A stretch of 64,000 nucleotides of DNA from a virus (taxonomy: Duplodnaviria; Caudoviricetes). This document shows, one piece after another, positions 14,918 to 64,000 of the stretch. The notes under the pieces were generated by a model that ran no database searches, was not told the DNA's origin, and was given only the letters and a program-made list of their open reading frames with translations. The DNA is taken from IMG/VR virus record IMGVR_UViG_3300005719_000012, positions 3,695 through 67,694 of that record; one strand, given 5' to 3'. Positions within the stretch are counted from its first letter, which is position 1, and the number at the start of each line of letters is the position of its first letter. A program made the position numbers and the translations under genes.

Positions 14918-17900
14918 ATGGCCGCGACCGTAAACGTCGGCACTTTAGAAGGTCTGCTTCGTTGGAAAGCGGATGATGCTGACGTTCAACGTTCGCTTAA
15001 TACCATTGCCAGTAAGGCCAATATCTCGCGTACGACCTTGTTCGAATACGGCAAGGAATTAGTCGGTGTCGAAAAAGCCTACAAGCGTGTCGCAGCGTCA
15101 ATCGATCCAGCCGTCGCTGCTGAGCAGAAACTAGAGACGGCTACGCGTGCACTAAACGCTGCGTTAAAAGCCAATCTGATCGATCAGCAAAAGTACAACG
15201 CGCAACTTGACCTAGCGCGTGCGAAATACACCTCAGCGCAGAATCCGCTTGATCTGCTCAAGGGTCGTGTAGGTGAGCTTTCTGGCAAAGTCGGTGAGCT
15301 GGGCGGCGTCATTGCCCGTTTTGGTGGTTCGGCTGGGGCAGGTCTCGCGAGTGTCGCATCATCTCTCACCGGCATAGGTAGTGCTGCCACCGGTGCGATC
15401 GCCTCCCTTGGCCCCCTGCTTCCTGTCATAGCTGGACTAGCCGCCGCCGCCGCGCTGGTCACAGTGGGCTTCAAGGGCTTCGAGGCGCTCAAGGACATCG
15501 TCTCGGACGGCATGGAGACCGAGAAGATACTCAACAAGCTCAACGCGACGATGAAGCTCAACGGCTCAATCTCGGGCATGTCGTCGCGTCAGTTAAACGA
15601 TCAAGCCGAGAAGTGGGCACTACTGACCGGGCGCCAGGACGATGAAATCCTGACCATGGACACGGTACTGTCACGGTATGACAAGCTCACCAAGGATACG
15701 TTCCCCAGAGCGCAAGTTGCGGCGCTGAATCTCGCCAAAATTACTGGCGGTGATCTTGCTGGCGCTTCCGAAAAAGTAGGCATCTTACTCTCTGGCGGGA
15801 CGCGATCGCTAAACGCTTTCCGGGAAGCTGGAATCGTTTTGACCGCCGGCCAGACTACGATGCTCAAAAAGCTGGTCGAGACCGGCCAAGGTGCTGAGTA
15901 CGTAGCCAAAGTGATGGAGCTTCTTGAGGGCAAGCTCGGCACCAATATTAAGACCGCGGACACGCTCGAAAAGGGCATGAAGAATGTCCGCTACATCTAT
16001 GGTGAATTCCGCGAGGCGATTGCGGGCGAGCTGATTCCTGCACTTGAGCACTTCTTCTATTCTCTCGTCAAGCAGCTTGGTGGGTGGGAGAACATTCTCA
16101 TTGTGGCTACGAAGGTTGGCGGTGTTATCAGTCGCACTCTCGCCAACATGGTGTACAGCGCTGAGACAGCCTATCACGCTTGGATGGTTGCTACCGGCAC
16201 ACTAGTCACTACACTGTCAAGGCAATTCGGTGATCTTGCGCACACGATTCTTGAGATCCCGCTACGTATTGCAGATGGCTTCAGCAAACTACCGATACCA
16301 ATTGCTCCCGCCTTCGCCGCGGCTGCGGCCGGCATTCGCCAGATGCAAATGACAACCGATGCGCTATTCTTGGGCGCGGAAGCCAAGTCTCGCGCGTTTT
16401 TGCAATCTCAAAAGTCCGAACTGGCTGACACGATCAAATCATGGAAAGAGCACAAGTCCGCGGTTGAAGGTACCGACGAAATCTACAAGCGAACGGGTAA
16501 TGCAACTTCTGATCTTGTCGCGCGGAACAAAGAGCTTGAGGCCGCGCTCAAGGCAGTTAACAGTGCAATTGATGCCGCTACCAAAGCCTACGATTCGCTG
16601 AATAACACCATCGACGCGCAGGCGCAAAAAATAGGCGAGGAGATATCCGACCGCACCCGCTTGATCTCTGCTTTGATGGCTGGCACTGACGCGTACGAAA
16701 AAGAACGCGTTGCAATCGCCGCCGAGAAGCAGATACGTTCTGATCTTGCCGCCGTACAAAAGTCGTATCAAGCGGCGGTTGAAGCGGCAAACAAAGCGGT
16801 CGACCTAGCTACAGAAAAGTTCGGTGCGCAGTCCGCGAAGGCATTGGAAGCGCGCACGATACTCGCGCAAATCGTCGCCACGTACGGTTCGGCAGTTTCG
16901 GGCCTGAAAGAGCTAAGCGCTGCCAATATCGCATCAGCTCGCGCGCTCGAAGAAGAGAAACAAAAGTGGAAGGACATCGACGCCGCGGTTAAAAGTTACG
17001 GCGCCGCGATAGAAGCGGTTCTAAAGCGGACGGCTGAATTCAACCGACAGCTTGCCGTTGATCAGGCGTCGCTGGCAGATCAGAAAGCGCGAATTGATCT
17101 TGAAACGCGCTATGGTACCGTAGTAGCCGACCTTGCCGTCCGTCTCGGCGCGGTGTCGGATTCAACGCGTAAAGTGCGTATTGAAGCGGAAGCGCTTAAT
17201 AATGTTCGAGCAGCCGCGCGTCAAGGGTTGACCTTAGATCTGGAAGCGGAAATCCAAAAGCTCACCCTGCAAGATGCACAACTACAGGCAATCAAGAAGC
17301 AACAAGCCTTGCTGGAGATCAAGGCTGACGTCTGGCGTCCGGTGACGGACGGTTTCCAAACCGCCTCAGGTATCATTCTAGATGGCATATTCAGTTGGAA
17401 GGGCTCGGCCAAAGACGTAGCCAGCGATATCGCACACAATTTGATCGACTTCCTAGTCAAGGCGTTTCAGGAGATCTTGCAACGATGGATCACGCTGCAA
17501 ATGACCATGGCGGCGGTAGAGCGTTCGCGGCTCCTGTCCAATGCCGCGATTGGCAATGCCTCGGCTGCGTCGGGTGCCGGAGTTACAGGCTTGCAATCTG
17601 TCGGGCTAACTTCTATCGGCTCGGCAACAACCGGCAACGCGTCGATGGGTGCGTCTTTGTCGCAGTGGGGCACGTACGCGGCATACGGATTCCTTGCCTG
17701 GGTGGGCTTTAAGATTGTCGAAGGGTGGACAAAGGCGCGAACGAAATACGGTGAAGCGTCTATCGGGGGTAGCACGTCCGGGGATCGCCGCATTGCCAGT
17801 CAGATATCTCAAACTATTACTGATCTTGTGCAGCAGGTTACTGACTTAGCGTTGCAATGGCACTTAGGGCTTGTGTCACTGACTCGCGGATCTGTGACAA

Positions 17901-20152
17901 TCGGTGCGAATTCGGACGGTTCTATTATCGTCAAATCGCTGATCGATAACGTCGGTCGCGTGTTCAAGACGATGTCTGAAGCGCTGGACTATGCGAAGGT
18001 ACAGGCACTTAAATTCGCTACGTTCTCAGATCAGGTATCAGAACTTGTCAAGGCGGCAATTCTCAAGTCCCGCGCAACGACGACAGAGGGGCTACAAGCT
18101 GATATCGACTTTGCTAATCGGCTCGTGACGCAAAACCTATCTGAAATCGAGCAACAGTTTCACTCGTTCTTGCAGACGTTCGTGGAGGATTTTCATCATT
18201 TGCTCGATTTGTTTGGGCCTGGCTCGTTACGGAGCTTGAGTGATTTTACACAACTGGGCGCCGCTGCCGAATCCGCGATTACCAGTCTACTCGGTGGCAT
18301 TCAGGGCATGTACGATCAGCTTACCGGGCATAAAGTAGACCAAGACGCGATAGATGAGCGAAACCGGGTTGCGTTTAATGCGCAGCGGGCTATTGTTATT
18401 GCCCAACTGACTCTGCTGTATGAAGAGATCAAGGCGCGAATCGCCGAGTATCAGGTGCGTTTGCGGATCTTGCAGTCCGGTGTTCTCGGTGGCGGTGGTG
18501 GTACTGACGCAGGAACGCCTAACACAAACGATTCAGGCTCGCGATCGAAGGGCGGTGGCGTACTTACGCGTGACGATCGCAACCCCACCGGCGATAGCGG
18601 GTTGGCAGCTTTATTACAAGTATTGGACAATCTTGCTCGTGCCATGCAAGGGCTGCCTCCTGAGATCGCGCCCGGCGGTGTACATCGCGGCGGCGGCGGC
18701 CGTGGAGCCGCAAGCCGCGACTCCGTGCAGTCGTTCATTGACGATAGGCGTTTTCAATTATCGCTATCGGCGCTTGATGATTTCCATCGGCAGCTTAAGC
18801 AGATCGAACATGACTACGCGGCACAGATTACGGCGGCAGGTAAGGACAAGAAATTACGTGAGCAGTTACTCGCTCTACAGCAGCAAGAGACAGCAGCGGC
18901 GGTCAAAGCGCACGAAGAGGAAGTTGCTGCTCGACAGGCCGAATTGCGCACCGAGTTTGGTCGCTTGGTCGCGCCTGACGCATTCGAGCAGGCTACTCGC
19001 CAATTCGAGGACATGAAAAAGGAGATCGAGAAAGCCGGATTCGGCGCGGACGAAACCGCAAAGATGATCGCCGGGCTAACTGCGGCAGAAATCGACGCGA
19101 TAAACAAGCTCGCGGATCAGCAATTCTCGTCGCTGGTTGGCGATTTGTCTAATATTATCGCAGAGAGCGAAACCAACGCGGAGCAAAATAAGTTGCATAA
19201 TGAGTTGCTGCGCGCGCAGGAGATTATCAACTATCAGATGAAGATGGTACAATTGCGTGCTGATTATGCAATAGTCAGGGCGAAGGGGTTGCTAACTCAA
19301 CAGGAGTTGGCGCTACTCGACAAAGCTTTCGGCTGGATCGACGCGAACGCGAATATTCTGCCCGGCGGGGCCGACTGGGCGCCGAGTTTCGAGCGCGTAT
19401 CTACCGCTGCGTCGGACATGTCTTCTGCGGCCGCGAATCAGAACGACGCCGCGGACAGGTTACGTACCGCGGTCGAATCACTTATCGATTATCAAACGTC
19501 GCTGCATACGGATGCGTCGCTAGGGCTTGTCGATCCTCGCACCGCGCTTGATAACTCGCGCGCAGATTACGAAGCGAATCGCGTAAAAGCACTTGCCGGC
19601 GACGTGGACGCGATTAGCAAATTCAAAGATTTCGCGGAGACGTATCGCCGCAATCTCGTGGGCTTCTCGCCTTCGTCTGAGCTTACGGCGTCGGTGTTGT
19701 CGGGCATAGACGACACGATTAACCGCATCCGGGGGTTACGCTCGGTACAAGCTGCGTTGTCGTCCGACGGACAGGCAATCGTCGGAGGCTTGAACGCGGT
19801 ATCGTCGGGTGTGGCGATGGTTTACTCGGTCGCGGCAGCGGTAAATGATAATACGAAAGAGACAAAAGACGCGATTCAAGCGCTCACGCCAGATGCGATT
19901 GCGGACGCGGCGAAATCGAAACAAGCGGATTATCTCAGTGCGACGTTGGCAGCGCAACAGTCTTCCGCGGCGGCGTTACGGACGGTGTCGGATGATATCA
20001 AGGCGCTAGGCGCGAATATCCTTGCTTGGCGGACCGAATCGCGCGGGAACGTCGATGAGGCGTACGGGCAATTGCAAGAAGCGAACGGGAAATTAGCGGC
20101 AATTGCCGCGAATACGAAACACGCAAGGAAACTCGCGGGTACAGGTGGATAA
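14918..20152 (+). CDS. Tape measure protein
   Basis: 1744 aa Ala/Leu-rich helical protein after the chaperones; AATVNVGTLEGLLRWKAD start. Implies a tail of about 260 nm at about 0.15 nm per residue. Confidence 0.9.
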   Translation: MAATVNVGTLEGLLRWKADDADVQRSLNTIASKANISRTTLFEYGKELVGVEKAYKRVAASIDPAVAAEQKLETATRALNAALKANLIDQQKYNAQLDLARAKYTSAQNPLDLLKGRVGELSGKVGELGGVIARFGGSAGAGLASVASSLTGIGSAATGAIASLGPLLPVIAGLAAAAALVTVGFKGFEALKDIVSDGMETEKILNKLNATMKLNGSISGMSSRQLNDQAEKWALLTGRQDDEILTMDTVLSRYDKLTKDTFPRAQVAALNLAKITGGDLAGASEKVGILLSGGTRSLNAFREAGIVLTAGQTTMLKKLVETGQGAEYVAKVMELLEGKLGTNIKTADTLEKGMKNVRYIYGEFREAIAGELIPALEHFFYSLVKQLGGWENILIVATKVGGVISRTLANMVYSAETAYHAWMVATGTLVTTLSRQFGDLAHTILEIPLRIADGFSKLPIPIAPAFAAAAAGIRQMQMTTDALFLGAEAKSRAFLQSQKSELADTIKSWKEHKSAVEGTDEIYKRTGNATSDLVARNKELEAALKAVNSAIDAATKAYDSLNNTIDAQAQKIGEEISDRTRLISALMAGTDAYEKERVAIAAEKQIRSDLAAVQKSYQAAVEAANKAVDLATEKFGAQSAKALEARTILAQIVATYGSAVSGLKELSAANIASARALEEEKQKWKDIDAAVKSYGAAIEAVLKRTAEFNRQLAVDQASLADQKARIDLETRYGTVVADLAVRLGAVSDSTRKVRIEAEALNNVRAAARQGLTLDLEAEIQKLTLQDAQLQAIKKQQALLEIKADVWRPVTDGFQTASGIILDGIFSWKGSAKDVASDIAHNLIDFLVKAFQEILQRWITLQMTMAAVERSRLLSNAAIGNASAASGAGVTGLQSVGLTSIGSATTGNASMGASLSQWGTYAAYGFLAWVGFKIVEGWTKARTKYGEASIGGSTSGDRRIASQISQTITDLVQQVTDLALQWHLGLVSLTRGSVTIGANSDGSIIVKSLIDNVGRVFKTMSEALDYAKVQALKFATFSDQVSELVKAAILKSRATTTEGLQADIDFANRLVTQNLSEIEQQFHSFLQTFVEDFHHLLDLFGPGSLRSLSDFTQLGAAAESAITSLLGGIQGMYDQLTGHKVDQDAIDERNRVAFNAQRAIVIAQLTLLYEEIKARIAEYQVRLRILQSGVLGGGGGTDAGTPNTNDSGSRSKGGGVLTRDDRNPTGDSGLAALLQVLDNLARAMQGLPPEIAPGGVHRGGGGRGAASRDSVQSFIDDRRFQLSLSALDDFHRQLKQIEHDYAAQITAAGKDKKLREQLLALQQQETAAAVKAHEEEVAARQAELRTEFGRLVAPDAFEQATRQFEDMKKEIEKAGFGADETAKMIAGLTAAEIDAINKLADQQFSSLVGDLSNIIAESETNAEQNKLHNELLRAQEIINYQMKMVQLRADYAIVRAKGLLTQQELALLDKAFGWIDANANILPGGADWAPSFERVSTAASDMSSAAANQNDAADRLRTAVESLIDYQTSLHTDASLGLVDPRTALDNSRADYEANRVKALAGDVDAISKFKDFAETYRRNLVGFSPSSELTASVLSGIDDTINRIRGLRSVQAALSSDGQAIVGGLNAVSSGVAMVYSVAAAVNDNTKETKDAIQALTPDAIADAAKSKQADYLSATLAAQQSSAAALRTVSDDIKALGANILAWRTESRGNVDEAYGQLQEANGKLAAIAANTKHARKLAGTGG

Positions 20153-26934: not shown

Positions 26935-27783
26935 CTAAGGATTACACCACCCAATCTCTCGGCCGAAGAACACGCACTCAACGCGATCCTCGGTCGCAAG
27001 GCAAGTCTTGCAGACGTCCTCTCCGAACCCGAACTGTTGGTCACAGGCCCGCGGCGTGTAGCACCCCTCACTGCACTTGGGGACCTGCGGATCGACAAAC
27101 TTGCAGAAGTAGGAAGGATCGACGGGATCATCTTTAGGGCCGGTTCCGGAAGTGACAATGGCACTCTTAGGAGCCAGGTTACAGAAGCCTGCAAAAGGGG
27201 CGCAGGAGTGAACCGATCCGCTATCGGCGAGGGAGGCCAGACAGTCCTTGCACTCTTTGACCGTAAGCCCTGTTGCTTCTGCGCACTTGGTCTCGGTGAG
27301 GCAGGAGGCGCTTACACAGTCCGGCACGAGCGCAAAAACATCGCCGCAGGTTAGAGACGCCGGCGGGGACGGTTCATAGTCCTTAGGCGTTGCGTCTTCT
27401 ACCGAGCACGGACCCACGTGCACCAGCTCGATTTGCCTGACTGTCGGGATGGTCCGCGAACCGTCTGCGGTGCATTCCTCTACCTGATAACGGATGCAGT
27501 GCGAAACCGGAGCACTGTCCCTGCAATCGTACGCCGAGCTTGAAGACGTATCACACCGCAACAGCTCGCACCCGAACGCCGAGCCAAGGCAGTCGCCGAT
27601 GTTGTTCCCGTCTCCGGGCTTCATCGCCATGAGGTGCATGTCCGCGGCGGGATAAACCCAAGCTAGCGACCCGGTATGCCACTCTGTGCTGCACGTCGTG
27701 ACACCTGCAAACCCCGGAGCTGCTGCAATCATCGCCACGACCGCCACTACAGCAACCAACACGAACACACTCTTTCTACACAT
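26935..27783 (-). CDS. Secreted Cys-rich protein (24 Cys in mature part)
   Basis: SD aagggga 7 nt before ATG 27783; signal peptide MCRKSVFVLVAVVAVVAMIAAAPGFA|G; internal repeat C..C.T...C....G....CKxCLA occurs twice. Confidence 0.8.
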   Translation of the reverse strand: MCRKSVFVLVAVVAVVAMIAAAPGFAGVTTCSTEWHTGSLAWVYPAADMHLMAMKPGDGNNIGDCLGSAFGCELLRCDTSSSSAYDCRDSAPVSHCIRYQVEECTADGSRTIPTVRQIELVHVGPCSVEDATPKDYEPSPPASLTCGDVFALVPDCVSASCLTETKCAEATGLTVKECKDCLASLADSGSVHSCAPFAGFCNLAPKSAIVTSGTGPKDDPVDPSYFCKFVDPQVPKCSEGCYTPRACDQQFGFGEDVCKTCLATEDRVECVFFGREIGWCNP

Positions 27784-27885: not shown

Positions 27886-28104
27886 TTACCTGGCAGCGCT
27901 CGTGCCTACAGTCCAGGTCTGGCAGGTGACTTCAGCCGTGGGCTCAGGGCCGGTGCATCCGGTGTAAGCCTGGCAAGTCCAAGCTTCGGTGCACATCATG
28001 TTCCCAGAGGTTCCTTCGCCGCGCACCTGAGTCATTTCCGCGTTGTTGAGGCGGATAATCGTTTCCTTTGCTAGCACTAACTTCACCAGCTTCGACCTTT
28101 TCAT
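27886..28104 (-). CDS. RiPP (lanthipeptide-like) precursor peptide 2
   Basis: SD aagggga; leader MKRSKLVKLVLAKETIIRLNNAEMTQVRG(E); core GTSGNMMCTEAWTCQAYTGCTGPEPTAEVTCQTWTVGTSAAR has 4 Cys and is Thr-rich. Confidence 0.75.
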   Translation of the reverse strand: MKRSKLVKLVLAKETIIRLNNAEMTQVRGEGTSGNMMCTEAWTCQAYTGCTGPEPTAEVTCQTWTVGTSAAR

Positions 28105-28218
28105 GGCTATCCCCTTGCGTGCATCATTCCGGCCTTGTTGGACATGTGAGGATCGTGCAACATGCTGTACCTTGGGTGTCCACCGGGACTTGCGTATCCT
28201 TTTATCTTTTATCGTGGA

Positions 28219-28575
28219 CTACCTGTGCACGCCTGCGCAAATCACGCCGTTGGACCGACCCAAGAGAGCGCCGGCAAGGCCGACGGAAGCGAAAAGCCCG
28301 CCAGATGTGCTTTGCCGCCCGAACGCACCATAGTTCTGGTACTCGGGCCCGCAGATTTCGCCCCGGGTGTATTCATGGTCGCCCACCTGCTGGCAGGCAT
28401 AACAGTTGTTCATACAACCGCAAGACCCCGGTTGAAAGGGGCCCCACTGCGCGCAATCGTCCCAGCAGTAATCAAAGCACGAACAAAAACTTTGCCCGCA
28501 TGACGCACTGACAGGAATGGCGCTAAAAACAAGAAAAACCACAAAAACCACGAGTGCGCTTGTAAGCTGTCTCAT
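28219..28575 (-). CDS. Secreted Cys-rich small protein (11 Cys)
   Basis: SD aaggga; signal peptide MRQLTSALVVFVVFLVFSAIPVSA|S; CGQSFCSCFDYCWDDC...CGCMNNCYAC. Confidence 0.75.
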   Translation of the reverse strand: MRQLTSALVVFVVFLVFSAIPVSASCGQSFCSCFDYCWDDCAQWGPFQPGSCGCMNNCYACQQVGDHEYTRGEICGPEYQNYGAFGRQSTSGGLFASVGLAGALLGRSNGVICAGVHR

Positions 28576-28666
28576 TTGTCTGTTCCCTTTCTTTGAAAAA
28601 GTAACGGGCCGAGCCGATACTCGCGCCCCGAGTCGAGAGCGACATCAGCCACACGCTGACGTCCCC

Positions 28667-28888
28667 TCAGTAGATTGGAGGTTGACAAGTCACCTCATAA
28701 CTTGGCTCACAATAGCACGTATAATAACACGTCTGGCACGTGTCAACGTAAACGCAAACAGTGCCATTGCTATTGCCGGCAGGCTCGGAATAATGGCCCG
28801 TATAGCCGCCACGAATCAGAGAATTGGACAGATTCGTGAGAGTCTCTCTAGACAAAGATAACCTGTGAGCCGCTATTTTCTTTTTCAT
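28667..28888 (-). CDS. RiPP (lanthipeptide-like) precursor peptide 1, 73 aa
   Basis: SD aaggaag; leader MKKKIAAHRLSLSRETLTNLSNSLIRGG; core YTGHYSEPAGNSNGTVCVYVDTCQTCYYTCYCEPSYEVTCQPPIY has 6 Cys and 9 Ser/Thr. Confidence 0.8.
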   Translation of the reverse strand: MKKKIAAHRLSLSRETLTNLSNSLIRGGYTGHYSEPAGNSNGTVCVYVDTCQTCYYTCYCEPSYEVTCQPPIY

Positions 28889-28937: not shown

Positions 28938-29495
28938 TTATTGACCAAGCAGCTCATCTCGCAACATTGCCCGTACCTTCTCCATAAGCTCTTTACAGCG
29001 CAGCAATCCCTCACGCTCGACAACCATCCATTGAATCACCCGCGTTGCTGCCCGGTCAATTGCTTCATCATACGCCTTGCTGAGGTCGTTGTCAAGTGCT
29101 ATATCCTCGTACGATCGCATCTCTGGGCTTGGCTCTGGCCCGTCGATGAGATTGCGACACTCGATCATACGAGCAAAGGAAGAGACTTCCGTAGGGAACA
29201 GGGCTATCGCTTCGAGTACGACATTGCCGCTAGAATCTAAAACGTTATACGATTGCAGAACATCATCGGTATGAGAGGAGGATTGCGGCTCTAGCCGCCA
29301 AGTCGTTATTTCCGACACCTTGCACTTCTCGCACGACCGCAAGTCAACAAACGGTCGGCCGCACTCGCTGCATACGTCATCGTCTTCAAGGTACGCGGGA
29401 ACAATCAGCGGCGGATGCCACGCGCCGAAGTCGAAAGTTTGATCGTACATTGCGGCGTTCATGAGTCTGTCCGTGCCAGTCGTCTCTGTGCTCAT
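28938..29495 (-). CDS. Hypothetical protein with CxxC...CxxC zinc ribbon
   Basis: CSECGRPFVDLRSCEKC; ggag SD. Confidence 0.6.
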   Translation of the reverse strand: MSTETTGTDRLMNAAMYDQTFDFGAWHPPLIVPAYLEDDDVCSECGRPFVDLRSCEKCKVSEITTWRLEPQSSSHTDDVLQSYNVLDSSGNVVLEAIALFPTEVSSFARMIECRNLIDGPEPSPEMRSYEDIALDNDLSKAYDEAIDRAATRVIQWMVVEREGLLRCKELMEKVRAMLRDELLGQ

Positions 29496-34581: not shown

Positions 34582-35961
34582 ATGACGGGTGTGTTAGGAG
34601 TTAATAAACTGATGACGCCTGCACTGTCCGGATCGCGCGCCGTGATTCTCTCCTGCCTTTTACCTTTCCTATCGACTGGCTGTATTTCGTCTCTCCCGCC
34701 CGAAGATCGTGCCGTCGTTATCAATTCGACAATCAGCGCGCTTATCAGCGGTGCGGTAAAAGTCGCAACCGAGGACGTGAGCGTGTCTTCGGCGTGCGCG
34801 GCTGAAACAAAAAAGCTGACAGGCCGCACGCATACGTACGCGGAATGGCAAAAATTGATTCTAGCGTGCCAGTCGCCGAGTACTCGCGTGACGACGGAAG
34901 CAGTTACGCCTATCTGCACGACTGTAGATCCGCGGCCGAGTCTTTGGCCGCGAGTGCCCGCGGGATTCAATTTGACATTCCGCTCCGAGTGGCTCAATTC
35001 ACTTCGAGCGCTTCCGGCGTCTATGCGTGGGTTTGATACGGGAGCGCTACAGCTCAACACCGTCACTCGCTGTTGGGAAATCCTCACGATTGGCGGAGCT
35101 GATCCGGGATACTTTTGGCGTCCATACGATTCGCGGTTCGACTTCATTTCTGCGTCGAAATTCAACCGCTACGGCCCGGGTGTTGGCGGCGGGCATTCGC
35201 ACGGTAATGACGGTCTCGTTTGCAGCCCCGCTGAATGGCTGAACGAAATCGAACACAGAACAGGCATAAGTCTGTTGACGTGTGAAAGCATCGAAGTGCT
35301 CGATACGTGGTATAACCGCGGGTTGTTTTATTCGCTCATGGCGCAGTACAACGCGTTGCACCCTCAGACACCGACACCGAGCCCGCCAGTCGTGCCGCCG
35401 GTCGCACCTCCTCCTGTTATGCCTCCTATCGTCACACCCCCGAGCTGTCCTGAGGGGCAAGCATGCCGCGCGCCCTGTGAAGTCTGCAAAACATGCGAGC
35501 CGTGTAAGGTCTGCGAGACTTGCGTTACATGCTCACCGCTACCGGTACTGAAACCGATTCCCTCAGACGTGCTCGCAACCGCGACTCATGCATTTGAATG
35601 GGTCGCAGATCAAACGGCAAAAAATCCGGCAAAACGAAAAGAAGCGCTGCGCCGAGTTGAGGCACTTCATCGTCTGCAAGACTGGCTACAGGCGCAGCAA
35701 GCATGTCAGATGGTTGTCGGTGATGACTTCTCTAAGGTCGATGTACTCGGTGGCTTGCTGAGCGGACTTAGGACTAGGCCGAGTAAGCAGCCAACAAAGG
35801 AGCAAGTCGTCGCGCAGGAACCGGTTTGGTTTTGTGGAATGACAGCGGACAGCACTGGCTTAGTGCGTAAGGTCAAGCTAGCTATCACACAGGACGGCTT
35901 TAGTTTGGAGCTAAAGGACTGCGGCAGGGTTGAAATGAAGCGCTGCTCGGAGGATCGGTAG
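34582..35961 (+). CDS. Putative lipoprotein with Pro-rich linker and CxxC repeats
   Basis: Hydrophobic VILSCLLPFLSTG|C lipobox-like site; PTPSPPVVPPVAPPPVMPPIVTPP; CEVCKTCEPCKVCETCVTC. Confidence 0.6.
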   Translation: MTGVLGVNKLMTPALSGSRAVILSCLLPFLSTGCISSLPPEDRAVVINSTISALISGAVKVATEDVSVSSACAAETKKLTGRTHTYAEWQKLILACQSPSTRVTTEAVTPICTTVDPRPSLWPRVPAGFNLTFRSEWLNSLRALPASMRGFDTGALQLNTVTRCWEILTIGGADPGYFWRPYDSRFDFISASKFNRYGPGVGGGHSHGNDGLVCSPAEWLNEIEHRTGISLLTCESIEVLDTWYNRGLFYSLMAQYNALHPQTPTPSPPVVPPVAPPPVMPPIVTPPSCPEGQACRAPCEVCKTCEPCKVCETCVTCSPLPVLKPIPSDVLATATHAFEWVADQTAKNPAKRKEALRRVEALHRLQDWLQAQQACQMVVGDDFSKVDVLGGLLSGLRTRPSKQPTKEQVVAQEPVWFCGMTADSTGLVRKVKLAITQDGFSLELKDCGRVEMKRCSEDR

Positions 35962-52622: not shown

Positions 52623-52840
52623 TCGGTTTGTCTGTCCGCGCTGCGGTGGGACTGGTAAGTGTAAAGAAGTGGACGGATATAAGATGAAGGCTGCTTCGGA
52701 AAGCAACCAATGTTAGTTTGAGAGAAATGGCCAGCCGGCTTAACATCAGCGCGATGTATCTATCGGATCTGGAGCTAGGTCGAAGAAACTTTTCCGAAGA
52801 ACTTGCACGTAGATTCGTGGCCGAATGCTCCATATCGTGA
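52603..52840 (+). pseudogene. Zn-ribbon plus XRE HTH protein split by a +1 indel near 52687
   Basis: CPRCGGTGKCKEVDGYKM in one frame continues as RLLRKATNVSLREMASRLNISAMYLSDLELGRRN in the next; ATA follows the ggagg SD. Confidence 0.55.
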
Positions 52841-55629
52841 ATCCTCTTGCTACTGCCGTCTTCGGCTTCGGCCGTACACCGAACGACATAATGCTTGTTG
52901 GCGAAGGCCCGGGCGCCGAAGAATACCGCTACGGAAAGCCGTTTATCGGCCCTAGTGGCATAGAACAAGACTGGTATCTCGCAGCGCACGATCTCTCCTC
53001 ACGCTTCTGGTACAAAACGAACGTCTCGAAAACCTTCATCCCCGGCAATCCCGACCCGGACGATGCACTAATCTCCTTTTGGTCGTCCTGGCTTGAGGAC
53101 GAGATCCGCGAGTGCTCCCCTAAACTTATCATCGCGGTCGGCAAAATCGCGGCAACGTGGTTCCTGCACAAACGCCGTGACATGGAGACGATTCACGGAA
53201 TACCGTTTCCTGTGACCGTCGCTGGCGTACGCGCGATCGTAATTCCGATTTTCCACCCTGCGTATGGCCTACGCAACCCGGATATTAAAGGTACGATCGC
53301 TTGGGATTATTCAATCGGCGCGACCGCGGTACGACTCGCACAGCGCACGTCCCGCGAGTCGTTCTACGCGCACTATGCCGCGCAGACTCCCGTTAACGAA
53401 ATTCCGTCGCCGAAATACACAGAACTCTCCGGCCCGGACTTCATCTCCGCGATGCGCCCCTACGAAGATTCTCTCCTCGGCGCGCCTATCGAATTCGGCC
53501 TTGATACCGAAGGCTGGACAGACTACCCGTGGCCGCAGTGGCTGCAAATCTCACCCGAACCCGGCGTATCGTACATTCTCAAGTCGGGCCGCAAAAACAA
53601 CGGATTCGATCTCGCGATTCGCAAGCTGCAATCCTACATCGATCGCGGATCTACCGTCGTCGCGCATCAGGCGGGCTCACCCTCGGGCGCAATGATCGAT
53701 ACGCAGATCTGTCGCATTCTTGGGCTTGAGCTTCGAGACGCTTGCCTCGACGACACGATGTACGCGGCTTACCTCCTGCGCGTATTGTCTCGCGGCCTCA
53801 AGCCTTTATGCTTCCGATTCGCCGGCATGGAAATGGACAATTACGAAGGCATCATCGGCGACATTGGCCGCGCGAAACAAATCGACTACCTGCGGCGCGC
53901 CTTGACGCATAACTGGACTAAGCCTGATTCGTACCCCGAACGCCAGAACGACGGTACGTGGAAGATCAAATCGCCGAAGTCAATGGCCGTGCTTATCGAG
54001 GGCGTTCTCCGCGATATTGACAGCGGCAAGATTCTCAAAGATGGGCCGACTGATCCTGAAAAACGCTGGCGGAAGTTTCCAAAGCGCAGCCGCCGGGAGA
54101 TCTCTGCGGCCATGGGCACGTTCCCGCGCGGTACACTTGACGACGTCGATCCTAAACTCGCAAACGGTTACGCGGGCGCGGACTCAGACGGCGTACTGCG
54201 AATCAAGCCACGCATACTTCATGAGCTAGACGCACTTGGCTTAATCCCTATCTACAATCAAGCGATGAGATTCCTGCCCATCGTTGAAGACATGCAACGC
54301 GAGGGCATGCCGGCGCGACGTTCAAAATTCAACGCGTTGCAATCGTACATCTTGCGCGAGAAGCTAAAAATGCAACGCGAGATAAACGAAATAAACGGTA
54401 AGCCGATTAACGTCAACTCGCCAAAGCAGATGATTCCCGCGTTACGCCGAATGTCCGTTACGCCACGCAAGCGCACAAAATCAGGCGCACCTTCGATCAG
54501 TAAGAAGAGCCTAGAGTACGCGAAGCACTTCTCGCGCTTCGTACTACTGTCATTCCAAATCAAGGAGCACGGCAAAATCGAGAGCACGTACTGCCGCCCT
54601 GCGATCGATATTGCCGATAATAAAGACGTGGATGGTGCGCCCGATAATGACGAATTCATTGTCAATTCGTTTTTCCAGGCCGCAAAGCTAACGTCACGAC
54701 GACTCGCAACCGAAAAGCCCTCGCTGCTGAATCAGCCCAAGCGAACAAAAATCGGTCGCATGGTCCGCGATTGCTACGTATTTCCTGCAAAGCGTGAAGT
54801 CTGTGAATATGACTTCAAGGCGCAAGAGTTACGCGTCGCGGTGTCGATCTCTCGCGACCCGTTCGGCATCCAAATGTTCACGAAGTGCTCGATATGCGGT
54901 GTGGACCTGCCAACAAAATCTCCATGTCGCAAGGACGACAAAGGCGAGCACAGCGACCCGCACAGACAAGCTGCCGCGCGTATCTTCGGTATTGACTACC
55001 GCGACGTAGATAAATACGAGCATCGCTTGCCCGCAAAGACTGCTACATTCGGCGTCATCAACGGATTGTCTGACCTCGGCCTTGTCGATCAATTTCTTAT
55101 GTACATCCCTCCCGGCCCTGACGGTGTTCATCCGTGGGCGAAAGTATCTGACTGTGAGCATCTGATTAAGGAGATCCTAACAAAGGTTTACAGGGGAATC
55201 GGTGAGGAGATCAAAGCCACGGAGCGATATCTACGCGCTCATGGGCTCGTACGTGACGTCTATGGCGACAATCAACCCGGGATGCTGCGCTACCTGCCCA
55301 ATGGTCGCTCAGAACGCCAGCGCGACCGTGCAGAGGCAATCCGCCAAGGGTTTAATCATCGCGTCCAGGGTACCGCAGCGCAAATGTCTCAAGCGTCGAT
55401 GGTATGGTGCGATCTGCATATCCGCAAGATGCAGCGGCGCGGCGTAGATGTGCACTGGCACTTACTTTCGCATGATGCGTTTATGTTGTCTTATCCGCCG
55501 CAGTATCGCGAGCAGGTTGGCGCGATCATTCTAGAAGGTATGACGAAACATCATGGTGTTAAACTCTGCGTCCCCGTCGAGGCTGACGGGGAGTTTGCGC
55601 AGTCTTGGGGGGAGTTGAAAAAAGACTAG
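52825..55629 (+). CDS. polA: Family A DNA polymerase with N-terminal family-4 UDG-like domain and 3'-5' exonuclease
   Basis: UDG: LVGEGPGAEE...PFIGPSG and FHPAY. Exonuclease: LDTEG and DTMYAAYLL. Polymerase: motif A YDFKAQELRV, motif B AKTATFGVING, motif C SHDA. Confidence 0.9.
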   Translation: MLHIVNPLATAVFGFGRTPNDIMLVGEGPGAEEYRYGKPFIGPSGIEQDWYLAAHDLSSRFWYKTNVSKTFIPGNPDPDDALISFWSSWLEDEIRECSPKLIIAVGKIAATWFLHKRRDMETIHGIPFPVTVAGVRAIVIPIFHPAYGLRNPDIKGTIAWDYSIGATAVRLAQRTSRESFYAHYAAQTPVNEIPSPKYTELSGPDFISAMRPYEDSLLGAPIEFGLDTEGWTDYPWPQWLQISPEPGVSYILKSGRKNNGFDLAIRKLQSYIDRGSTVVAHQAGSPSGAMIDTQICRILGLELRDACLDDTMYAAYLLRVLSRGLKPLCFRFAGMEMDNYEGIIGDIGRAKQIDYLRRALTHNWTKPDSYPERQNDGTWKIKSPKSMAVLIEGVLRDIDSGKILKDGPTDPEKRWRKFPKRSRREISAAMGTFPRGTLDDVDPKLANGYAGADSDGVLRIKPRILHELDALGLIPIYNQAMRFLPIVEDMQREGMPARRSKFNALQSYILREKLKMQREINEINGKPINVNSPKQMIPALRRMSVTPRKRTKSGAPSISKKSLEYAKHFSRFVLLSFQIKEHGKIESTYCRPAIDIADNKDVDGAPDNDEFIVNSFFQAAKLTSRRLATEKPSLLNQPKRTKIGRMVRDCYVFPAKREVCEYDFKAQELRVAVSISRDPFGIQMFTKCSICGVDLPTKSPCRKDDKGEHSDPHRQAAARIFGIDYRDVDKYEHRLPAKTATFGVINGLSDLGLVDQFLMYIPPGPDGVHPWAKVSDCEHLIKEILTKVYRGIGEEIKATERYLRAHGLVRDVYGDNQPGMLRYLPNGRSERQRDRAEAIRQGFNHRVQGTAAQMSQASMVWCDLHIRKMQRRGVDVHWHLLSHDAFMLSYPPQYREQVGAIILEGMTKHHGVKLCVPVEADGEFAQSWGELKKD

Positions 55630-58622: not shown

Positions 58623-58916
58623 TCAATCTTCCCCTAGTGAGTCATTCAACCGCCGGGCATAATTGCTTGTGTCGCTCTTGCCGTTTCGTGCGTCACATTC
58701 CCTCTGCGACTGTTCGCGGTCTTCAAACTCTAGTATAAAACCTTCCTCAGTTTTGGCGTACTCGCGTCGTATGCGCTTTCCCTCCGGATGTCTGAATATC
58801 CGCCAGAACACTCGTCCTGTTGGGCCGTCCGCGCATTGTGTTAGCTGCCAAAGCATATATATAATCTTCTCTCTTATGCTCGTACCCACATCACGACTCA
58901 ATCCTTGTGAGCCCAA
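58623..58916 (-). CDS. Hypothetical protein
   Basis: 97 aa in operon. Confidence 0.45.
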   Translation of the reverse strand: MGSQGLSRDVGTSIREKIIYMLWQLTQCADGPTGRVFWRIFRHPEGKRIRREYAKTEEGFILEFEDREQSQRECDARNGKSDTSNYARRLNDSLGED

Positions 58917-59500
58917 GACTGAGGTAAGCCAGGAACATTCTCAATTCGCCACCTTTTGGCAATTTTTCCTCCGATAACACGAATCATATCGCTCAGTTCG
59001 TCGTCGCCGTCGTCAGAAGCCAGTAAGGCGGCGGTGACGATGCCCGATAAAACCCTATCCTGCGCATGATGCAAAAGATCGCGCTTCGAGCGATTGCGGC
59101 CTCGCGCAACGTGCGCTCCTGCGCGAGCGACAAAATTGCGCTCCGGAACTACTCGAAACTCTCCTGTTTCAAGGTTGACCTCGCATGTTAACTTCTCCGT
59201 TTCGGTCGGTCGGCCAGCAAGTCTTGCGTCTACGTCCGCGGCCTTACAGCGATGGACGCCTGTATGTCCTTTATCTCGCGTGCACACATTATGGCCAAAA
59301 CCCGGAACTTGCTCACGACACTCACCAATAGAGCTGATGAGGGCAATATGTCGCTTTGCCGCACATCGTTCCGAATCGCCCGCCATAAATCCGCGCCACC
59401 ACTCCTTGCCGGCCTTGGTGCGCCCGTCGTAGGGGCACGTCAAGCCGTAGGGGCTGGCGAGTCCGGCGGTGTAGCCTTCGTTATACTGTTGATCACTCAT
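58898..59500 (-). CDS. Hypothetical protein (RMF-like CPY...WWRG motif, C..H..HxC)
   Basis: GYTAG.....CPY.......WWRGF; CTRDKGHTGVHRC; SD aggagg. Confidence 0.55.
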   Translation of the reverse strand: MSDQQYNEGYTAGLASPYGLTCPYDGRTKAGKEWWRGFMAGDSERCAAKRHIALISSIGECREQVPGFGHNVCTRDKGHTGVHRCKAADVDARLAGRPTETEKLTCEVNLETGEFRVVPERNFVARAGAHVARGRNRSKRDLLHHAQDRVLSGIVTAALLASDDGDDELSDMIRVIGGKIAKRWRIENVPGLPQSWAHKD

Positions 59501-63977: not shown

Positions 63978-64000
63978 CCCCCCCCCCCCCCCCCCCCCCC
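63978..64000. repeat. Terminal poly-C run (23 nt), probable library/assembly artefact
   Basis: Homopolymer running to the window end. Confidence 0.6.

Follow-up and report, generated by a model that had tools for sequence, protein, structure and literature searches.

Putative orphan class I lanthipeptide-type precursors encoded as a pair in a complete phage genome

We found that a complete phage genome encodes two short paralogous peptides, P0001 and P0002, whose leaders are of the class I lanthipeptide type. The explanation that we consider probable, with some reservation, is that they are phage-borne orphan class I lanthipeptide-type precursors (LxLx[K/R]x5L ... GG) matured by host machinery. 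P0001 is a divergent member of a known precursor family, and what is unusual is its setting, a phage without maturation genes.

Results

The phage genome

The window, which is the whole stretch of DNA that was analysed (64,000 nt), comprises bases 3695-67694 of a 67,694-bp IMG/VR virus record, and CheckV rated the record as 100% complete. It is a phage genome and not a bacterial one, a point that the initial annotation had missed. Gene annotation revealed a portal, a major-head-like protein and a collagen-like tail fibre, and a helicase, an ERCC4-type nuclease and a GH108 lysin were also encoded. The portal protein was only about 32% identical to those of the closest cultured phages. The sole related phage that we found was a 14-kb IMG/VR fragment (L013) on which the DNA polymerase is 85% identical. 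This fragment is too short to span the region of the precursor genes, and the conservation of the cassette is thus not readable there. A 934-aa ORF at 52825..55629 (plus strand) has a uracil-DNA-glycosylase-superfamily domain fused to a family A DNA polymerase (UDG-PolA). In the tail module, a 1744-aa ORF (14918..20152, plus strand) had zero Pfam or PHROG matches and is probably a very divergent tape measure protein.

A terminase-small-like HTH gene sits near the right end of the record, and the large ORF at its left end is a putative large terminase, assigned by position only with no family matched. Terminase-like genes at both ends suggest that the record wraps with little missing. The last bases of the record are a homopolymer of more than 20 C (63978..64000), and independent assemblies stop at a similar length (67,694 to 67,796 bp). 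The homopolymer probably breaks the assemblies, or else it marks a genome end.

A profile search, which covered tyrosine integrase only, was negative in the phage and positive in 14 of 14 control genomes. The phage looks virulent on the basis of the absent tyrosine integrase. Only one public run contained the phage DNA, a rhizosphere metagenome, which is probably its source; no RNA run containing the DNA was found among the public runs. The phage has no tRNA genes. Its GC content is 54%, and Shine-Dalgarno-like motifs precede 15 of 27 gene starts, a signal too weak to name or exclude a phylum.

Two further genes of the window deserve mention. A 459-aa family-less protein (34582..35961, plus strand) has a lipoprotein-like N-terminus, a Pro-rich linker and seven CxxC-spaced cysteines in a run. 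It is a further Cys-rich, envelope-directed phage protein, with a TC-rich stretch that recalls the precursor cores. In a 200-aa protein (58898..59500, minus strand), the first 44 residues match ribosome modulation factor PF04957 at 27.0 bits (cut-off 27.9), and this may be a phage-borne RMF-like domain.

The precursor cassette

The two precursor genes lie in a cassette that closes a leftward block of family-less small ORFs and is convergent with the tail-fibre module. The order of the genes is P0005, P0001, P0003, P0002, P0004. The features in window coordinates are as follows.

28938..29495, minus strand: P0005, the upstream neighbour (185 aa) and a possible member of the cassette, with a zinc-ribbon-like CxxC..CxxC and no family
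29067..29095, minus strand: sigma-70-like promoter match TTGACA-17-TATGAT, a consensus match only (11/12), located within the 3′ end of the preceding gene, some 170 nt ahead of the P0001 start
28667..28888, minus strand: P0001, precursor 1, a 73-residue ORF plus stop
28595..28666, minus strand: structured spacer 3′ of the P0001 stop, with a pair of hairpins of which the second leads into a U-rich run; terminator- or attenuator-like
28219..28575, minus strand: P0003, a candidate gene (118 aa) between the precursors, which starts with a signal peptide, is Cys-rich in the middle and has a hydrophobic stretch at the C-terminus; no family
27886..28104, minus strand: P0002, paralogous precursor 2 (72 aa), above the NF038153 cut-off and aligned over its full length with P0001
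27799..27831, minus strand: 11-bp GC-rich hairpin with a short U-rich tail 3′ of the P0002 stop; terminator- or attenuator-like
26935..27783, minus strand: P0004, the last gene of the leftward cassette (282 aa), with a signal peptide, very Cys-rich, without relatives

P0001 and P0002 are real genes. The ATG of P0001 is preceded within a few bases by a Shine-Dalgarno-like, purine-rich AAGGAAG, and a public gene caller called the identical 73-aa product on other assemblies of the phage. With a codon model trained on the long genes of the phage, the annotated frame scored best of the six, at a value near zero owing to its odd composition. An in-frame TTG start at 29023 (118 aa) was rejected: it overlaps the preceding gene and lacks the MKK N-terminus of the family, and the ribosome binding site is at the ATG at 28888.

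The spacer behind P0001 (28595..28666) folds at -39.1 kcal/mol (z -3.5), and 0 of 200 shuffles were as stable. Hairpins 3′ of lanA genes are a familiar means of keeping precursor transcripts abundant.

The neighbours of the precursors are less well defined. In the P0003 region, the public gene call is a 113-aa ORF on the opposite strand (28162..28503, plus strand). Codon statistics favoured neither of the two, and the ribosome binding site and signal peptide favoured the minus strand. No matches to the cassette proteins were found in PHROGs or by PDB sequence searches. AlphaFold single-sequence models of P0004 (pLDDT 41) and P0005 (pLDDT 39) were too low for use, and an Atlas look-up of P0004 returned nothing usable.

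P0001 and its paralog

The leader of P0001 comprises residues 1-28, with L10-x-L12-x-R14-x5-L20 and the end R26-G27-G28. The core of 45 residues has 6 Cys, 6 Thr, 3 Ser, 8 Tyr and four TC dipeptides, and its C-terminal module is TCQ..EP..EVTCQ. The minus-strand translation thus bore out what the initial annotation had described, namely a GG-ended leader and a core with 6 Cys, 9 Ser/Thr and four TC dipeptides. By composition only, such a core would be capable of forming (methyl)lanthionines.

P0002 lies 560 bp downstream on the same strand. Its leader has LxLxKx5L and ends in RGEG instead of GG, and its core has 4 Cys and a TCQ..EP..EVTCQ module as in P0001. The two peptides aligned over their full length with 34% identity (BLASTP, E = 4e-7), and the identical positions comprised 10 in the leader and 13 in the core. 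Among the 22 conserved residues with degenerate codons, 16 had different codons in the two genes. Synonymous sites were largely randomised while key residues of leader and core were kept, which spoke for long-standing selection on the whole peptide and not on the leader alone. Codon for codon, the comparison shows an old split of the pair, with leader and core both evidently under purifying selection.

Leader family

We compared the two peptides with NF038153 (lant_leader_L1a), the model of the class I lanthipeptide leader, whose curated cut-off is 22 bits. In a peptide scan P0002 reached 29.3 bits and P0001 19.8 bits; P0001 is therefore below the cut-off, with a leader that falls 3 residues short of the model. 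When all six frames of the 67.7-kb record were scanned, the model matched at exactly two places, namely P0002 with 30.2 bits (E = 5e-8) and P0001 with 20.4 bits (E = 6e-5). The 14 control genomes, which are of megabase size, gave no match above the cut-off. At E<=1, P0001 and P0002 were matched by no further NCBIfam or Pfam model, TIGR04149 (the rSAM-target leader) included, and generic double-glycine bacteriocin leader models were likewise unmatched by both. An Atlas look-up placed P0001 with a Lant_leader_dom cluster at 0.86, which is below threshold.

For class I LanAs of Bacteroidetes, the pinensin family among them, Walker et al. 2020 (PMC7268733) describe an LxLxKx5L leader that is often GG-ended, with a C39 protease encoded in the cluster. 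P0002 has this motif exactly and P0001 has it with R for K. The Gly-Gly leader end, the C39 cleavage site, is present in P0001, and the G-E-G of P0002 resembles the G-K-G of P0028, a relative from a LanBC cluster.

Three known systems can be set beside the phage pair. Class I LanAs (NF038153, Pfam PF28317 Lant_leader_dom, the LanAs of Walker et al.) are alike in leader motif and length, in the GG-type end and in a core of some 40-45 residues that is rich in Cys and Thr/Ser, and one bacterial locus (L007) also has precursors of 73 and 72 aa in tandem. Unlike them, P0001 and P0002 are encoded by a phage without LanB, LanC, protease or exporter; moreover, P0001 has the R for K, a shorter leader and a score below the cut-off, and P0002 has the GEG end. 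The precursors of Bacteroidota rSAM RiPPs (TIGR04149, GG_sam_targ_CFB) have a related leader architecture, and many relatives of P0001 and P0002 match both models. However, P0001 and P0002 themselves do not match TIGR04149, and the phage has no radical SAM gene. Double-glycine class II bacteriocins and signal peptides, which are exported by C39-ABC transporters, share the short GG-ended leader and the reliance on a dedicated exporter, but their generic models were unmatched and the LxLxKET block of the phage peptides is specific to the RiPP leader family.

Relatives and their gene neighbourhoods

A word-based search of 5.8e9 proteins with P0001, P0002 and P0004 returned no proteins beyond the queries themselves. 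A profile of P0001 and P0002, run exhaustively against 1.84e9 representative proteins, gave 52 further matches of 35-43 bits. The best outside match was at 42.6 bits, and the cores had no close relative. All but one of the matches were peptides, 51-122 aa long, in which a Cys/Thr-rich core follows an MKK..KKLxLNKETIxNL..GG leader; the exception, P0038, is a 1611-aa protein rather than a short peptide and was set aside. NF038153 matched 54 of the 54 aligned peptides, and TIGR04149 and NF038158 also matched 31 and 25 of them, respectively. The leader had initially been assigned to a lanthipeptide or rSAM-target type, and in view of these relatives the second option was a fair one. P0001 and P0002 themselves match NF038153 only.

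Gene neighbourhoods were read only where contigs were long enough. Three relatives adjoined LanC or LanB/LanC genes, one was near a B12 radical SAM gene and two stood alone, as listed here.

P0017: precursor followed by LanC, a full-length LanB, a C39-ABC exporter and an HlyD-like gene
P0028 (locus L007): tandem 73- and 72-aa precursors followed by LanC, a split LanB and an S41 peptidase
P0023: an ABC ATPase on one side and LanC on the other
P0057 (L083:8001-11301): in an island that also has RVT and nuclease genes, a B12-binding radical SAM gene lying about 1.6 kb downstream
P0009 (L081:2002-4832, L082): no modification genes in the few kb available
P0034: no modification genes in the few kb available

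The lanthipeptide reading was to be abandoned if homologues never lay near modification enzymes. P0017, P0028 and P0023 do lie beside LanC or LanB/LanC, and the reading survived this test. In a core-only comparison, P0001 was nearest to the LanC-adjacent P0023 (60% over 20 residues), followed by P0002 (56% over 23). The three share a TCQ..EP..(E/I)VTCQ module, and P0028 and its tandem partner have a C-terminal EATCQP. The relatives with the most similar leaders (LSLSRETL type: P0014, P0034) came from contigs of 59-67% GC, compared with 35-36% in canonical Bacteroidota-like loci and 54% in the phage.

Two of the other neighbourhoods are of interest in themselves. The island around P0057 (39% GC) contains the B12-binding radical SAM gene, a nucleoside deoxyribosyltransferase, a GT4 'conflict' glycosyltransferase, a reverse transcriptase and a 5′-3′ exonuclease. 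It looks like a mobile element or defence island and not like a lanthipeptide cluster. The radical SAM protein is a B12-binding one without a recorded SPASM domain. The orphan precursor P0009 adjoins a HEPN/nucleotidyltransferase pair and a reverse transcriptase, on a contig without Lan genes.

Searches among phages were negative. With P0001, P0002 and a consensus-like leader as queries, tblastn gave no match at E<=1 in 50,697 GenBank phages. IMG/VR scans for relatives of P0002, of P0004, of the adjacent tail-fibre-like gene and of the leader alignment confirmed none. Two profile searches of genome contigs, one with the leader alignment and one for the LanC adjoining P0023, had nothing confirmed in either. 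Pattern scans of IMG/VR yielded 3 matches to KKLxLNKETI and 68 to LNKETIxxLN, with 0 RiPP-like precursors among them, and the trait appears rare in IMG/VR, at least for the two exact motifs scanned. A limited literature search found no publications on phage-encoded orphan lanthipeptide precursors.

Most of the pattern matches (L018, L020-L031 and about 40 other loci) were on small viral contigs of about 32% GC that share ISYQLNKETI(stop or x)FLN, often broken by stops. This recurrent AT-rich stretch is probably a non-coding element that matches the leader pattern by chance. At L067:953-982, a 253-aa viral ORF opens with LLNKETITSLN..GG and is then Cys- and Gly-rich; its start is leader-like, and it is not a short precursor.

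Maturation enzymes

We also searched the phage for genes that could mature the peptides. HMMs of LanB (PF04738) and LanC (PF05147) found none in the 67.7-kb record, and these two models had no positive control among the 14 control genomes. A tblastn search of the phage with genuine LanB, LanC, S41 and ABC proteins found nothing, and the long ORFs scanned with Pfam contained no LanB/LanC-like domain and no ABC ATPase. Radical SAM (PF04055) was absent from the phage and detected in 14 of 14 control genomes, and peptidase C39 (PF03412) was absent from the phage and detected in 7 of 14. As the phage is complete and has no LanB, LanC, radical SAM or C39 gene, P0001 and P0002 are orphan precursors.

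These results support in part an earlier proposal that the product is a polycyclic lanthipeptide or ranthipeptide. The leader type, the LanC or LanB/LanC genes beside relatives and, for the second option, the radical SAM gene near P0057 speak for it. The phage itself lacks every one of the enzymes named above as well as an ABC transporter, and P0001 scores below the cut-off.

Discussion

To our knowledge, this leader has only two roles: it is recognised by RiPP-modifying enzymes, and C39-ABC exporters recognise and cleave it. As the leader is kept under selection in a phage that has neither, an interaction with the host versions would follow. We infer that the leader interacts with RiPP enzymes or an exporter of the host, and this forms the firm core of our reading. 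The modification is likely to be lanthionine formation, in favour of which we count the LanC or LanB genes that adjoin the nearest relatives, the conservation of Thr-Cys positions and the fact that NF038153 is the only model matched.

During infection, the peptides would be expressed from their own promoter-hairpin units. The host RiPP machinery, a dehydratase and cyclase of the LanB/LanC type and/or a peptidase-containing ABC exporter, would recognise the leader, and Thr/Ser and Cys of the core would be joined into (methyl)lanthionine rings. A cut after GG would then remove the leader and release a phage-specified polycyclic peptide. The Cys-rich secreted P0003 and P0004 might be accessory, e.g. 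immunity or envelope factors, although this is a guess. Several observations stand against this reading. The virulent look of the phage leaves little time for a multi-step maturation, and the same leader family also serves rSAM-modified peptides and has orphan copies in bacteria. In addition, P0001 by itself is below the cut-off, P0002 ends in GEG, and the cognate LanB, LanC and PCAT are hypothetical host ones.

It is unlikely, in our estimate, that the peptides are merely exported. The leader would in this case serve as a ticket for a peptidase-containing ABC exporter of the host and the cores would be folded by disulfides, so that P0001 and P0002 together with P0003 and P0004 would be secreted disulfide-rich phage factors, e.g. 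bacteriocin-like or envelope- or receptor-modifying ones. All four of these cassette genes are Cys-rich with an export signal, C39-ABC exporters accompany this leader type (PMC7268733; P0017 locus) and the phage has no modification enzyme. However, the conserved leader positions, LxLxKETxxxL, are those of NF038153 and extend beyond the GG region, and the generic double-glycine bacteriocin models did not match. The Thr beside Cys is also conserved in the core, likewise in the LanC-adjacent P0023.

We regard as distinctly unlikely the idea that the peptides are decoys, whose leaders mimic those of the host, occupy its lanthipeptide synthetase or exporter and block or redirect its RiPP pathway, possibly an anti-phage one. 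The leader alone would suffice for this purpose, yet the Cys/Thr positions of the core are conserved as much as the leader. Class I lanthipeptide clusters can defend against phages, as reported for the actinobacterial 'lanthiphages' (bioRxiv 10.1101/2024.06.26.600839), and this report favours the decoy, as do the leftward block of family-less small ORFs, the virulent look of the phage and the orphan state of the precursors. Lanthiphages are actinobacterial, however, and a link between the P0001 leader type and such a host defence is purely hypothetical. As lanthipeptide clusters are reported to defend against phages, the hypothesis of counter-defence is testable.

A modification by radical SAM enzymes of the host instead of LanB/LanC, giving ranthipeptide-like or other rSAM RiPPs, is very unlikely. 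Although TIGR04149 also matched more than half of the related peptides (31/54), it failed to match P0001 and P0002 even at E<=1. P0057 points to a radical SAM enzyme about 1.6 kb away, but that enzyme is of the B12-binding type with no SPASM domain on record, and the relative nearest in the core, P0023, adjoins LanC. Lastly, hitch-hiking remnants, i.e. host-derived precursor genes functionless in the phage, would agree with the failure to find relatives in other phages (IMG/VR scans; 50,697 GenBank phages) and with related phage sequence too fragmentary for a conservation check, but they are very improbable given that both ORFs are intact with ribosome binding sites, that synonymous change is saturated while key residues are conserved, and that the genes have promoter-like and hairpin signals of their own.

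Orphan precursors matured by the host thus remain our preferred reading of P0001 and P0002. A bolder version is possible but rather doubtful: a virulent soil phage would commandeer or jam the lanthipeptide synthetase and exporter of its host with a two-peptide RiPP module that includes two new Cys-rich secreted partners. Either host enzymes would then make a phage-specified polycyclic peptide, or a lanthipeptide pathway of the host, possibly an anti-phage one, would be blocked.

RiPP precursors are usually interpreted as belonging to bacterial gene clusters. In the present case, two of them are kept under selection in a complete phage that has no modifying enzyme, which implies that the virus can supply a natural-product pathway of its host with substrates, or decoys, of its own. 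The interest of the finding is moderate until the host and the product are shown. If the reading is true, some 'orphan' precursors in metagenomes would be explained, and new Tyr/Cys/Thr-rich cores with the TCQ..EP..VTCQ module would be available to lanthipeptide enzymology. RiPP machinery would also join the host systems that phages exploit, with a new phage-host interplay at the level of RiPP biosynthesis.
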